In this document: piece after piece, positions 2,034 through 7,496 of the stretch | How the letters are laid out: each line of letters opens with the position of its first letter | How positions within the stretch are numbered: the stretch's first letter is position 1 | Source of the DNA: a virus | Lineage: Duplodnaviria; Heunggongvirae; Uroviricota; Caudoviricetes | Strand: one strand, 5' to 3' | DNA length: 23,521 nt | IMG/VR virus record: IMGVR_UViG_2529293249_000013 | Location: 1 to 23,521 of that record | Made by a program: the position numbers and the translations under genes | Notes under the pieces: generated by a model | What the model saw: only the letters and a program-made list of their open reading frames with translations | Told to the model about the DNA's origin: nothing | Databases searched by the model: none

Positions 2034-2046
2034 GTCCGCCTGTTCA
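2021..2046. terminator. Bidirectional hairpin terminator between convergent acetyltransferase and tailspike genes
   Basis: Perfect inverted repeat GGCGGAC-TAA-GTCCGCC (2024-2040) with the acetyltransferase stop codon in the loop. On the minus strand the hairpin is followed by CATTTTTAT. Confidence 0.5.
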
Positions 2047-4470
2047 TGATTGATAAACACCACTATTTACATAGTTAGCCTGAATTCGTGTACGGAATGT
2101 TGAATCAGCAATCTGATATGAATTTAACTGAACAGGAATAGCGCATCCGGAATATTTACCAGTAGCACTATTACCAGACTCATACTCACCAAATAGCAGT
2201 CCTATGGTTGTAATAGATGTCTCCGCAACTCCTGTGATTGTAGACAACCATCCAAATACACAACTTGTAAAATCAAATATACCTGTTCGTTTTCCACCAC
2301 TACTGTTCCAACCCAATCCATAGATTCGACAGTTGTTAAAGTAAATTCTGTTGTATGAACCGGAGGTGCGGGGAAGCGCTCCATCAATATATCCCATCGC
2401 CATATCTTGATTTGAAACACGCACCGTCATGTTACCCCATGCATTGATATAAGGAACGCAGTTGTAACTGTTATCAATAGTCACATCCTGTGGAACATCA
2501 TAGGAAGTAAACATGAATGTTTGTACGTTATAGCGAGGGTTGGATGGCGAAGTGGTTTTCCCAAGACGAGCAAGGTCTACATCCTTCACTGTGAGCTTAT
2601 ATTTTTCTCTGCCTACGATAGTTGAAAGCTGAGCATCTGTTAGGCTTGAGTAGTTCCTTTGGTTGTAGACAACGCTGACGGATAAAGTGGAATCATAAGA
2701 ACGTGTCCCTACAACCTTTACATTTTCAATGTAATGGCTGTTTGGCAGAATCATATATTGCTCATAATTATTTTTGCTTGACACGCCGAGATCCAATATT
2801 CTAAGTTCCAGAAGTCCAGAGGCATTAGTCAGATCAAGAGACACGTCCTTTATCACTACATCCGGGCTTGTGGCGATATAATTACCATTATATTTTGGTT
2901 CAAGACTGCTTACCAAGAAATAACCTTCACACGTAGACGGTAACGTGACTCGTAAACCTTCAACTCGAATCTCGCCATCCCATGATGACATGTAATCTCG
3001 CTTCACAGAGAAAAATTCAAGAGTTTTTTTCCCGTACATGCCGAGGTGCTTGCATTTAGTGGCCACCCATTCTCCCCAACCTTGCGCCGCACAATGATAA
3101 CGAACTGTCGATTCATTGAGATAAATGTCAGACATACTGAAGTGACCGCCAACGCCAGGTAAGTCGCATCGATTAATATGTATATTTCGTGATTTATTAC
3201 CATCAAAGCCGCTCCACCCATTGATGCAGCAGCAATTATCCATTGTTACATCAGAACATTTTTCAGTGAGGATAAAATAGGCTGCCTCATTTCTTCCCGC
3301 GGGGATGGAAGGTGCAGTACCATCAAGATATCCAACAGGACTCATGTATAGGTTATTAACATAAACTCTTGAGCATCGTTGGAAGTTTACTACCTGCCTT
3401 GTGCAACCATTATTTATTACCTCAACTGTATTTCCATGTATTATAGTATTATTCCTTGAGCAAAGAACAACATTATTGATTCTTGCCCCATCCAAAACAA
3501 CCTTTGGCATTTTAAAATACAGGTTATTTGTAAAAGGTTTATATTTTATAACAGGTCGATCTTTATAGGTATAATAGTTCCGATAACGCAAGTTACCGTC
3601 AGCGTCAATCTCGTGAACTTCTGTTTTTAGCTGGTCTGATAAAGTACCACCATTATTTCTCACCATCACAACATCTTTAGAATCAAGAATAATAGTTCCC
3701 TGTAATCCATTAACAGGGAAGCTCACCTGCCCTTTCATGTAGCTTACTGCGGAAAACATTTCAGTGACATCATTTTCATCCTGAGAGATTTCAAATAGTG
3801 TCTTGTCCAAAGACCAGACATCTCCACCCTGATATGTAGAGCATGTCACTGTTGCATCACTCATATCTGAGCTAACTGTTATTTCAATAGGGTCTGTGGA
3901 ACTTGCCGTGAGAACATAATTCCCTGTAGCAACAACCGATTTTTTCAATATCTTTGCGTCTGCATACATTTTTTTAAACGCTAATGTATGATCCACCTCA
4001 TTCCCATCAAAATAGAGCTCTGGATACAGAAAAGGAAGACTCTTTAACTTATTTAACTCTTCCTGAACAGTAGTGCCAGTTGCCGTCCCTATTATTGATG
4101 CGCCCCCATTACTTTCAATTTGCTGACGCAATTGGTCGGGGTCATACTTCAGCACATTCGGAAAATAGAACTGCTGCGCACCATACGCATCATAAACAGC
4201 CATAGAATGGCCTTGCACAGTTACGAACTTGGCAATCTGTCCGTTATATACCGGATATCCAGCAGCGTTAATGATGATTGGTTGCGAAACAGGAACGTGA
4301 GAACCGTCTTCGTTCTCCACATAAACCTGAATCTGGTTTTCAGGATTTACCGGGTCCGTGTCAATTTTACCGATATAGATTTTGCCATTGGCTACGGCTT
4401 TAAAAGAACGAGCCATAGTGAAGAGTTGCGAAGGCATGCTCACTACAACATTGGCTGTAATGTCTGTCAT
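2044..4470 (-). CDS. Tailspike protein: P22 gp9-type head-binding N-terminal domain fused to a divergent receptor-binding/depolymerase body
   Basis: 808-aa ORF. First ~115 aa ([11 protein letters not shown]...[21 protein letters not shown]...[13 protein letters not shown]...VLKYDPDQ) closely match the P22 tailspike head-binding domain as recalled; the rest is unrelated to P22 gp9 and AT-rich (~30-40 percent GC). RBS GGAG 9 nt upstream of ATG at 4470. Confidence 0.9.
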
Positions 4471-4602
4471 TTAATTTGCTCCAGATACAATGAATCGCCG
4501 CAGCATGGCTACGGTTGATGTTTGTTGCATACCGAAATGGTACGATTGTTGATTTGTACAGTAGGTTTTACGATGCCATTCCACCCATTTGGTGAGGCAT
4601 TG

Positions 4603-4860
4603 ATGATGTACAGCAAATACGATGAGGCGCAGTTCCACTTGAGGCTTACGCACGAGTTGCACGCTAAGATTAAGCAGCGTGCAAAAATGAATAACAGGTC
4701 TATCAATTCCGAAATTGTGGCTACGATGGAAGAATCACTCTCCAAACCATCACCTGTAAGCGGGTATCGTGATGAAGAAGAGAGGTTGGCCTCATTAATC
4801 TCGGAGCGAGTAAAAGAAGTTGCGGCTGATATCCTTAGAAAAGAAAAAACCCGCGATTAA
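4603..4860 (+). CDS. mnt: Mnt-like ribbon-helix-helix repressor (immI region)
   Basis: Six-frame ORF 4522-4860 trimmed to ATG at 4603, which has RBS GGTGAGG upstream. The 85-aa product has RHH motif NNRSINSEIVATMEESL and a C-terminal SKPSPVSGYRDEEERLA close to P22 Mnt (SKPSPVTGYRNDAERLA, from memory). Confidence 0.8.
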   Translation: MMYSKYDEAQFHLRLTHELHAKIKQRAKMNNRSINSEIVATMEESLSKPSPVSGYRDEEERLASLISERVKEVAADILRKEKTRD

Positions 4861-5912: not shown

Positions 5913-6539
5913 TCAATGAATCCATTCCTCGCCGCGCAGTTTTGCCAGCATTGGCTGAGCGTTCTTTACGACAAAATTGTTGGTATCAAGATTCTTCATT
6001 TCACGAAGAAGTGATTTCTTGGTTTCTTCTGACATGTAGCGAGTCTCATATGCAATATCGTAAATCCTTCCTGAAAGCTCAGAACCAATTTGCTTCATTC
6101 CTGGGTAGATGTGTTTGCACATTTGTTGACTCTTCTCCATCCACAATTGTAAGTAGCAGAGATTAACCAGTTCTTCGTCAGTAAACTGTTTTGCAATCGG
6201 TGAGCATTCTGCCTGCCGATCCAAAATATCCAGCACCCAGCGGCGGAACTCTTTGGCTACCTGAGTGCGAGCAAACATCGCGATTAGGTGGGCACCGCGT
6301 AGTGAGAAAACACGCACTTTTTTGCGATAATTTCCTGAGGTACTCACTTCGAGTACCTGAGTCATTCCGGCGCTAAACTCATCGCTATACTTGTTATAAA
6401 TCATTGTTACTGCACGACTATTTGCGTATTTAAGTGCAGATGCAATATTAGATGATGTAAACCAAACACCATGCATATCACGGGTGGGCACCAATTCAAC
6501 TCCGTGGAAGTTATAATCTGATTTTGCTACAATATTCAT
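5913..6539 (-). CDS. Bro-N-type antirepressor-like protein (ant analogue downstream of arc)
   Basis: Bro-N-like motif YNFHGVELVPTRDMHGVWFTSSNIASALKYANSRAV...RVFSLRGAHLIAMFARTQVAKEFRRWVLDIL. Start set at ATG 6539 (MNIVAK..., RBS AAGGAAA). An upstream in-frame ATG at 6623 also has a plausible RBS and would overlap the arc stop. Confidence 0.7.
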   Translation of the reverse strand: MNIVAKSDYNFHGVELVPTRDMHGVWFTSSNIASALKYANSRAVTMIYNKYSDEFSAGMTQVLEVSTSGNYRKKVRVFSLRGAHLIAMFARTQVAKEFRRWVLDILDRQAECSPIAKQFTDEELVNLCYLQLWMEKSQQMCKHIYPGMKQIGSELSGRIYDIAYETRYMSEETKKSLLREMKNLDTNNFVVKNAQPMLAKLRGEEWIH

Positions 6540-6608
6540 GTTAGTTTCCTTGCATACGGTTACTGACATAGAGGCCCGGTTTGTGTTCACGCACTGCCGG
6601 GCTTCACT
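6525..6608 (+). ncRNA. Possible sar-like small antisense RNA, complementary to the ant-analogue RBS and start codon
   Basis: Plus-strand consensus -10 TATAAT at 6512-6517 (weak -35). Downstream, a hairpin GAGGCCCGG-17 nt loop-CCGGGCTTC (6571-6605) is followed by ACTATTTTTACT. The predicted ~80-nt transcript would be antisense to the RBS/ATG at 6539-6552. P22 has a sar RNA in the equivalent arc-ant interval. Confidence 0.25.
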
Positions 6609-6612
6609 ATTT

Positions 6613-6786
6613 TTACTGGGCATTAGCTCTTTCCTCTCTCAGGCTTTTAGCCAGTCGCTGCACAATCGCAGAGTTGATAGAAATTCCATCCATTTCAGCA
6701 ACACGTCTAATCTCCTCCTTCATTCGCGCTGGCAAACGAAGCTGGAAACTTTGACTTTTACGACCTGTGTAAAGCACATCTTTCAT
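6613..6786 (-). CDS. arc: Arc-like ribbon-helix-helix repressor
   Basis: Six-frame ORF 6613-6801 trimmed to ATG at 6786 with RBS GGGAGGA. The 57-aa product has RHH motif SFQLRLPARMKEEIRRVAEMDGISINSAIVQRL, resembling P22 Arc (QFNLRWPREVLDLVRKVAEENGRSVNSEIYQRV, from memory). First gene of an arc-ant-like operon. Confidence 0.75.
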   Translation of the reverse strand: MKDVLYTGRKSQSFQLRLPARMKEEIRRVAEMDGISINSAIVQRLAKSLREERANAQ

Positions 6787-6897
6787 AAGTAATCCTCCCA
6801 CAATGATACCAACTTGGTTCTAGAACCAATTTAACACCATTTATTTTGATGTCAAGTTGGTGCTATTGTTTAGCGAACATCTTTACGTTGAGGTCAT
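6787..6897. promoter_or_regulatory. Divergent promoter/operator region between arc-like (minus) and second mnt-like (plus) genes
   Basis: Perfect 16-bp palindrome TTGGTTCTAGAACCAA (6814-6829), flanked by 9-bp inverted repeats ACCAACTTG (6808-6816) and CAAGTTGGT (6853-6861). Minus-strand promoter: -35 TTGACA (6850-6855), 16-nt spacer, -10 TAAATT (6828-6833); the palindrome covers the -10 and predicted start site. Confidence 0.6.
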
Positions 6898-7218
6898 ATG
6901 AGCAAGTTCCCTAGTCATGAAATGGATAGGTTCAATATCAGGCTTCCTGCAGGAATGCGGGATGCTATAGCTGAACGAGCCAAACGTAACGGCAGATCAA
7001 TGAACTCAGAGATTGTTCAGATACTGGAAGATGCCTTGAATGCAGAAAATACACTCGGGGAAATAGCAGATAAAATCAACAGCGTCTCGGTTCCGCTAAA
7101 TGTTGATGCGCTAGTTCAACTTCAAGCCCAGGTTATCGCCATGCAAAAAGAAATACAGGAAAAGTTCAGAGAGCAGAACGAAAAGTTGAGAGAACTGCTA
7201 AACAAAAAAACCACCTGA
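6898..7218 (+). CDS. Second Mnt-like RHH repressor (N-terminal RHH plus C-terminal coiled coil)
   Basis: 106-aa ORF. RHH motif FNIRLPAGMRDAIAERAKRNGRSMNSEIVQILEDAL, then a heptad-rich C-terminus (LVQLQAQVIAMQKEIQEKFREQNEKLRELL). Divergent from the arc-like gene, in the position P22 mnt occupies. Confidence 0.7.
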   Translation: MSKFPSHEMDRFNIRLPAGMRDAIAERAKRNGRSMNSEIVQILEDALNAENTLGEIADKINSVSVPLNVDALVQLQAQVIAMQKEIQEKFREQNEKLRELLNKKTT

Positions 7219-7240
7219 CGGTGGGTTAATTTTTGCCTTT
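7204..7240. terminator. Putative terminator after the second mnt-like gene
   Basis: AAAAAAA-CCACC-tgac-GGTGG followed by GTTAATTTTTGCCTTTTTT. Short stem. Confidence 0.4.
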
Positions 7241-7316
7241 TTTGGACCATATTGACTACTCATAAAATGAGATCAATATTTAATCGCCCAATAACGGGTG
7301 CATGTTGAGGTATATC

Positions 7317-7496
7317 ATGGCGAAAAAACCAGGTGAAAACACAGGAAAAAACGGCGGAATATACCAAGAAGTTGGCCCGCGCGGAGGTAAGAAAGACAAT
7401 TTTGCCACCGTCAAGGACAACGAAAGGCTTCCGCCAACAACAAAGCCAGGTCATGGCTGGGTATTAGATAAGCGAACTCCAGACAGCAAAAAGTAA
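7317..7496 (+). CDS. Small conserved hypothetical protein, YjzC-like (59 aa)
   Basis: Six-frame ORF 7302-7496 trimmed to ATG 7317 (RBS GAGG about 8 nt upstream). KPGENTGKNGGIYQEVGPRGG...RLPPTTKPGHGW resembles the YjzC-like small protein family as recalled. Upstream TTGACT at 7252-7257 and an inverted repeat CTCAT-AAA-ATGAG could be a promoter/operator. Confidence 0.5.
   Translation: MAKKPGENTGKNGGIYQEVGPRGGKKDNFATVKDNERLPPTTKPGHGWVLDKRTPDSKK

Follow-up and report, generated by a model that had tools for sequence, protein, structure and literature searches.

We asked which regulator reads the repeated elements in the 111-bp spacer at positions 6787-6897 of this DNA (the window is the whole stretch that was analysed, 23,521 nucleotides). 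On the gene map the spacer is the boundary of two divergent transcription units. The arc-like gene comes first on the minus strand and is followed by ant, and the mnt-like gene is on the plus strand:

5913-6539, minus strand, antirepressor (Ant) gene, 3' of the arc-like gene (Pfam Bro-N and P22AR_C; RefSeq label: P22AR C-terminal domain protein)
6613-6786, minus strand, Arc-like gene, 57 aa (Pfam Arc, E 8e-12)
6898-7218, plus strand, Mnt-like repressor gene, 106 aa (Pfam Arc PF03869, E 1.6e-20)

A sequence-only reading had called the spacer an operator-rich divergent control region, and the immI-type gene order and the Pfam Arc matches of both regulators bear this out: it is the control region of an immI-type second-immunity (mnt / arc-ant) module of a P22-like E. 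coli prophage. E. coli chromosomes contain P22-like prophages that are 99.8-100% identical to the window. In one of them, that of strain 55989, the prophage adjoins tRNA-Arg and intS (RefSeq annotation), and the immI module sits between the DNA-injection genes and the tailspike gene, as immI does in P22 (55989 annotation compared with the P22 map). Part of the region was matched in 447 of 5426 complete E. coli genomes.

Within the spacer we distinguished the following elements (half-sites are numbered HS0 to HS5):

6803-6807, weak phased site HS0, ATGAT, 11 bp from HS2
6808-6818, 11-bp dyad ACCAAcTTGGT, made of the weaker half-site HS1 (6808-6812) and HS2
6814-6829, perfect 16-bp palindrome TTGGTTCTAGAACCAA, its own reverse complement, made of HS2 and HS3
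6828-6855, minus strand, predicted promoter of the ant operon, start predicted near 6821
6835-6842, HS4, CACCATTT, inside the ant-promoter spacer, where P22 has Oarc
6846-6850, weak phased site TTGAT between HS4 and HS5, abutting the -35
6853-6865, right-hand unit CAAGTTGGTGCTA with HS5 (TTGGT, 6857-6861), the third copy of TTGGTnCTA
6861-6869, plus strand, candidate mnt promoter, extended -10 TGcTATTGT, start predicted near 6876

The palindrome that had been noticed in the letters was confirmed in both its coordinates and its self-complementarity; the centres of its halves, HS2 (TTGGT, 6814-6818) and HS3 (ACCAA, 6825-6829), are 11 bp apart. It had been said to cover the -10 and the start of the minus-strand promoter: it does span the predicted start (about -8 to +8), but of the -10 it covers no more than the last 2 bp. 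The two 9-bp inverted repeats also lie where they had been placed (ACCAACTTG at 6808-6816 and its complement CAAGTTGGT at 6853-6861). They do not flank the palindrome as described, since the left 9-mer overlaps it by 3 bp; and of the half-site said to lie over the -35, the right 9-mer overlaps that hexamer by 3 bp but its TTGGT is just upstream. With a repeat finder the outer pair extends to 17-nt arms of 82% complementarity (6800-6816 / 6853-6869) and the palindrome to 20-nt arms of 75% complementarity (6802-6821 / 6822-6841). The right element can just as well be read as directly repeating the left half-operator (CAAcTTGGTtCTA compared with CAAgTTGGTgCTA), and HS4 is a direct repeat of ACCAATTT (6825-6832), 10 bp away; other repeat types carry their own half-site at the HS4 position when aligned by eye. 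The adjacent inverted geometry of HS1 and HS2 is that of the main dyad in other ribbon types (GGCAAaTTGCC, GTCACgGTGAC) and of P22 Omnt.

The minus-strand promoter TTGACA-N16-TAAATT, also proposed earlier, was found by the promoter scan, with its -35 TTGACA at 6855-6850, a 16-nt spacer, TGn and a -10 TAAATT at 6833-6828. It matches 10 of 12 consensus positions, has TG ahead of the -10 and is predicted in the same place as the annotated P22 Pant. The scan of this kilobase was not enriched overall (2 promoters found, 2.0 expected), and the call is based on quality, position and conservation. For the mnt-like gene, TGnTAnnnT at 6861-6869 is probably an extended -10 promoter; a Shine-Dalgarno sequence, GAGG, follows at 6890-6893, 5' of the gene. 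The scanner did not call this candidate, because it is without a good -35. The right-hand unit reaches 3 bp into the ant -35 and also takes in the TG and the first part of the probable mnt -10. Placing the mnt promoter as in P22 (TCTAGA-N17-TATTTT, 6819-6847) was rejected in favour of the conserved TGnTAnnnT, because 6843-6847 is the most variable stretch. The mnt promoter and the transcription start sites are inferred.

How unusual are the repeats for DNA of this kind? At the size and composition of the window, 0.43 perfect palindromes with 8-bp arms are expected and 36% of simulations had one, so the palindrome alone is unremarkable. In the 111-bp spacer alone the expectation is about 0.002, and TTGGTTCTAGAACCAA is the sole palindrome of the window with arms of at least 7 bp. 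TTGGT/ACCAA occurs 4 times in the 111 bp against 0.37 expected (Poisson 6e-4), and TTGGTnCTA has just three occurrences in the window, at 6814 and 6857 and, in inverted form, at 6821. The degenerate half-site A[CT]CA[AT] with its complement occurs 7 times in 6803-6861 against 0.92 expected, a statistic that is only indicative because the pattern was defined after the region had been inspected; for the same reason HS0 is weak evidence. The centres lie at 6805, 6810, 6816, 6827, 6838, 6848 and 6859. Leaving out 6810, they are spaced by 11, 11, 11, 10 and 11 bp, which puts the sites on one helix face.

Which parts of this arrangement are kept in relatives? Divergent spacers were extracted from related loci in IMG/VR and GTDB species genomes. 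Repeats of the window's type (A-type) were found in 35 distinct spacers from 88 loci, and in one more from a later genome set, counts that are biased, like those of the other classes, because the loci were picked by similarity to the two window proteins. Among the 35 distinct A-type regions the 60-bp core (6804-6866) has no insertions or deletions; its flanks differ in length and sequence. TTGGT (6814-18), CTA (6820-22), AACCAATTTA (6824-33), CACCATTT (6835-42), ATGTCAAGT (6849-57) and GGTGCTA (6859-65) are nearly invariant, and 6806, 6808-09, 6813, 6819, 6823, 6834, 6843-47 and 6858 are variable. The AACCAA of the palindrome is conserved and its inner positions 6819 (T/A/G) and 6823 (G/C/A) vary, giving TTGGTTCTAAAACCAA, TTGGTACTACAACCAA and similar versions in relatives; because of this the perfect 16-bp symmetry is lost there, and the palindrome as such does not count as the conserved element. 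Relatives keep, instead, half-sites in fixed phase: TTGGT, ACCAA, CACCA and TTGGT, with ACCAA as a weaker one. HS1 reads ACCAA, GTCAA or ACCTA in relatives, HS0 is kept as ATGrY, the right-hand unit is conserved as T[T/A]GGTGCTA, and the site at 6846-6850 is only moderately conserved (ATGAT, ACAAT or ATGGT). Both hexamers of the ant promoter and their spacing are invariant in the 35 distinct related regions, and the TG, the TA and the final T of the candidate mnt promoter are conserved in A-type regions and also in B-type ones (TGCTACTGT). Part of the conservation of HS3 and HS5 may therefore be promoter constraint, since HS3 overlaps the -10/discriminator and HS5 overlaps the mnt -10. The Salmonella phage Oslo has a core near-identical to that of the window between coding flanks that are only 76% identical.

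Which of the two regulators do the repeats follow? In the window the Mnt-like protein has an N-terminal ribbon-helix-helix (RHH) with the recognition strand MDRFNIRLP, of which R11, N13 and R15 face the DNA; the Arc-like ribbon is SQSFQLRLP, with S13, Q15 and R17 facing the DNA. We classed 75 distinct divergent spacers by repeat type and by these three ribbon residues in each protein. Repeat type agreed with the Mnt-like triad at an adjusted mutual information (AMI) of 0.97 and with the Arc-like triad at an AMI of 0.58. The pairings of Mnt-like triad and repeat were:

R/N/R with ACCAA/TTGGT, 36 of 36 regions
R/T/R with TGATG/CATCA, 16 of 16 regions
P/G/R with ATCACGGTG, 6 regions
K/M/R with GTCACnGTGAC, 3 regions
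V/N/R with P22-like CCCCACnGTGGGG, 2 regions

Locus L152 joins the window's repeat type and R/N/R ribbon to another Arc-like family. Part of this covariation could be linkage, because the Mnt-like ribbon physically adjoins the spacer. The Arc-like ribbon is about as far from the spacer as the Mnt-like ribbon, though, and it is the Arc-like one that has repeatedly been separated from it; simple linkage therefore fails to explain why the repeats stay with the Mnt-like ribbon alone.

The same pairing was seen on a single protein scaffold. From codon 18 on, the Mnt-like genes of three loci (L102, L099 and L130) have 92-98% DNA identity to that of the window, whereas in codons 1-17 and the spacer the identity is only 43-53%. 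Each has its own ribbon and its own half-sites:

L102 (Stx phages), Mnt-like ribbon K/N/R, half-sites GCCA/TGGC
L099, Mnt-like ribbon K/T/R, half-sites GGCAA/TTGCC
L130, Mnt-like ribbon K/V/R, half-sites GGCAT/ATGCC

These half-sites are at the same places as in the window, with a dyad at the ant start and, past the -35, a half-site followed by CTA/CAT; in the other three ribbon types of this scaffold, TTGCC, ATGCC or ATGGC takes the place of HS5. Because the half-site type covaries one-to-one with the Mnt-like ribbon and not with the Arc-like one, we assign the whole array to the Mnt-like repressor, whose operator set it probably is, over both the ant promoter and the probable mnt promoter. 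The covariation agrees with what is stated in PMC3413123 (citing Knight & Sauer 1989), namely that specificity in Arc and Mnt is determined by the N-terminal strand, the ribbon, which can be transferred between RHH proteins.

Comparison of the window with L102, L099, L130 and L005 shows the Mnt-like gene to be a three-part mosaic: codons 1-17 (the ribbon) travel with the spacer, and codons 18 to about 50 (the helices) and the C-terminal domain are exchanged separately. The Mnt-like gene of L005 follows that of the window to about codon 37, but its C-terminal domain is another one. Three further loci (L037, L068 and L178) combine the P22-like dyad ACCCCACsGTGGGGT with the Mnt-like ribbon DPVFNLRMP, in which Val stands at the place of P22 Mnt His6. 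His6 is the residue reported to determine the specificity of Mnt; the change there is a natural one, and operator bases are changed too. In the same three loci the ant-promoter spacer holds another copy of their own half-site, not a P22-type Oarc.

The RHH core of the Mnt-like protein is 54% identical to P22 Mnt over 37 aa, and the protein matches the PDB entries 1mnt (Mnt; E 6.6e-8) and 1arq (Arc); among solved structures, Arc, Mnt and AmrZ are the closest. Its C-terminus showed no sequence similarity to the tetramerisation domain of P22 Mnt. A single-sequence AF2 model, poor and of low confidence overall (pLDDT 66), has helices at 18-30, 36-62 and 69-105, the last with a pLDDT of about 81-85; according to this model the long C-terminal helix could mediate oligomerisation. 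The Arc-like protein, the product of the first gene of the ant operon, shares 42% identity with P22 Arc over 43 aa. Its helices are nearly invariant (RLPERMKEEIRRMAEMDGISINSAIVQRLAKSLREER) across the L006-L085 and L166-L178 loci and its ribbon residues 11-15 are strongly variable; the ribbon variants (S/Q, A/N, V/N, N/M, K/M and K/N) combine freely with the control-region types.

There are further small genes in and beside the module. A second full-length Mnt homologue of 84 aa (4606-4860, plus strand) adjoins the tailspike gene (2044-4470, minus strand), so that there are three Arc-family genes in the module. It is 47% identical to P22 Mnt over 73 aa, the C-terminal domain included, its ribbon reads EAQFHLRLT (Q/H/R), and small dyads lie 5' of its gene (TACCgaaatGGTA at 4531-4543 and CACCcatttGGTG at 4583-4595). 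We considered HS4 (ACCATTT) as a site for this homologue and rejected the idea as uninformative, because the window has 9 copies of the 7-mer. A two-way hairpin terminator, CCACCTGACGGTGG, marks the end of the mnt-like gene (7211-7224). The 3' end of the gene and the next ~80 bp (to ~7300) are 93-94% identical to the mnt 3' region of the P22-like Salmonella phages SE1 and ST-29, a similarity that the remainder of the gene does not have. Two small genes of unknown function adjoin the module: 7302-7496 (plus strand), whose 64-aa product has a weak, sub-threshold YjzC-like Pfam match (E 0.0017), and 7510-7875 (minus strand), whose 121-aa product had no match.

The stretch at 6538-6612, which separates the arc-like stop (6613) from the ant start (6539), likely encodes a sar-like antisense RNA on the plus strand, with its start predicted near 6538. 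This arc-ant junction aligns with the P22 sar region and folds into a pair of hairpins with a U-tract after the second (-35 kcal/mol, z -6.8). Stem differences among loci, read by eye, appear to preserve pairing, and a candidate -10, TACAAT, is near 6527-6532. In 6300-7300 no Rfam family, sar or other, was found at threshold.

Does the Arc-like protein have an operator of its own in the spacer? The sequence-only reading had suggested tandem operators for two RHH repressors, as in P22. Under such a scheme the Mnt-like protein would take the palindrome and the Arc-like protein either the flanking repeats or HS4, the -35-proximal site and HS5 (~6834-6862), and the Arc-like protein would repress both promoters. 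An Arc-type shut-off is biologically expected, and P22 has its Oarc between the -35 and the -10 of Pant, where the window has HS4 and a weak dyad, ACCAT-N5-TTGAT (6836-6850). HS4, however, is of the same half-site type as the array, as are the other elements that would be given to Arc, and the weak dyad is not conserved in many relatives. Two loci with an Arc-like V/N/R ribbon (L160 and L077) do have a perfect ACCAT-N5-ATGGT dyad at the Oarc position, but the link between this ribbon and the G beside the -35 is broken by L173, where an S/Q/R Arc-like ribbon occurs with GGTGTCAA, and the Oslo and L049 types do not keep the right half of the dyad; we rejected the link and keep it as a lead. The window and locus L026 have Arc-like genes that are ~97% identical from codon 8 to the stop, with an identical protein over that length, beside A-type and B-type spacers that cannot be aligned. 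More broadly, the S/Q/R ribbon stands beside repeat types A, B and C, and also D by the reading of locus L083, and the only word of at least 6 bases common to all S/Q/R contexts was (G)ATGTCAA, the -35. Comparison of the 75 regions found no element that follows the Arc-like ribbon. The tandem-operator proposal is thus not supported, as all elements share one half-site, which follows the Mnt-like ribbon only, and we consider separate operators for the two repressors unlikely. An Arc-like protein with no operator here would leave the module short of the Arc-type shut-off on which P22 depends, and the apparent lack of such an operator poses a modest question about how ant is shut off in the lytic growth of these phages.

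Alternatively, both RHH proteins might read one array, like lambda CI and Cro, with an Arc-like dimer competing or cooperating with the Mnt-like oligomer. In a few loci the two ribbons are alike (K.NLR.P in the Stx-phage type, KFMLR in L176, K.NLR in L177), which suggests that both proteins read the same sites in some modules, and the lack of a separate Arc-like operator in any type would fit. In the window, though, the ribbons differ (S/Q/R and R/N/R), and one S/Q/R Arc-like protein occurs with four half-site types and therefore cannot be specific for all of them, which makes a shared array here an outside chance. That the palindrome and the repeats are a product of chance or mere promoter elements with no operator function is barely credible: 0.43 such palindromes are expected per 23.5 kb and HS3 and HS5 do overlap promoter hexamers, but the cluster is unique within the window, the indel-free conservation reaches beyond the hexamers, and the half-sites are swapped as a set whenever the Mnt-like ribbon changes.

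How would a single repressor use the array? According to the reading that we prefer, the Mnt-like RHH repressor, with its putative C-terminal oligomerisation helix, would read TTGGT/ACCAA-type half-sites by R11, N13 and R15 in a rigidly spaced array on one helix face (centres near the positions given above, 6810 included). HS2 and HS3 would be the best sites, and their occupancy at -8 to +8 would block RNA polymerase and keep the antirepressor off in the lysogen. Together with the HS1/HS2 dyad they would mask the -10 of the arc-ant promoter as well as its start. HS4, in the promoter spacer, and the third TTGGTnCTA unit, which spans the ant -35 and the predicted mnt extended -10, would add to the repression and, at higher repressor levels, lead to autoregulation. 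The binding itself and its stoichiometry are inferred.

Beyond this locus, the immI modules of Enterobacterales phages may fall into many heteroimmune classes, of which our sample would contain at least 9. As a tentative generalisation, on which we would not insist, such classes may arise by swapping a compact cassette of the Mnt-like ribbon (~17 codons) and the entire operator array, with the Arc-like gene shuffled independently and without an operator of its own. One repressor would here read 5-7 phased sites over both promoters, and the Arc-like protein would act on another target, or on the same half-sites only in modules whose ribbons match. The region supplies an operator set and a recognition ribbon, both concrete enough to be tested, for an immI specificity class that is so far uncharacterised and occurs in hundreds of E. 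coli genomes. The four ribbons on one near-identical Mnt-like scaffold, each with its own half-site, form a natural series that is usable for studying how RHH proteins read DNA and for predicting the immunity of prophages to each other's antirepressor circuits.

Finally, we compared the module with known systems. By its sequence, the region is a new specificity class of a known module, with an architecture somewhat unlike that of P22. It shares with P22 immI the place between the DNA-injection and tailspike genes, the divergence of mnt from arc-ant, the two Arc-family RHH regulators with an antirepressor, the consensus TTGACA as the ant-promoter -35, a sar-type hairpin that is conserved where arc and ant meet, and a dyad at the ant start, in the Omnt position (a likeness by position only, of 6814-6829 and 6808-6818 relative to the predicted promoter). 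The operators themselves are unrelated: the annotated P22 record gives AGGTCCACCGTGGACCT for Omnt and ATAGTAGAGTGCTTCTATCAT for Oarc, and no half-site is common to these and 6800-6870, in line with the earlier suggestion that the half-sites differ from those of P22 and imply a different specificity. The window's dyad is 9 bp closer to the -10 than that of P22, and its probable mnt promoter lies beyond the ant -35, whereas that of P22 overlaps the ant spacer. Unlike P22, the window adds further half-sites of the same kind in phase, lacks a distinct Oarc-like dyad, and has both a Mnt-like C-terminal domain dissimilar to that of P22 Mnt and a second full-length Mnt homologue elsewhere in the module.

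A literature search for the operator strings, which mostly covered journals outside subscription, returned only unrelated papers. The region between gene 16 and the tailspike gene of P22-like phages (the 'ant moron') is highly mosaic, with ten types in sixteen genomes and arc or ant in some only (Villafane et al. 2008, PMC2629481), and the window is one more such type. That study compares gene content and leaves operators and ribbon/operator classes undefined for the types other than P22. Swaps of Arc and Mnt N-termini and portable RHH ribbons are described for engineered proteins in binding assays (Knight & Sauer 1989; Raumann et al. 1995; Zampini & Hayes 2012, PMC3413123). Here the swap is a natural one, in which one scaffold occurs with four ribbons and four half-site sets, and the evidence is comparative. 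Omega, CopG, ParG and MetJ are RHH repressors that bind several short sites about one helical turn apart over a promoter; they are without a Mnt-type C-terminal domain and belong to other systems. The putative operator array in the window would resemble those of these phased-array repressors.
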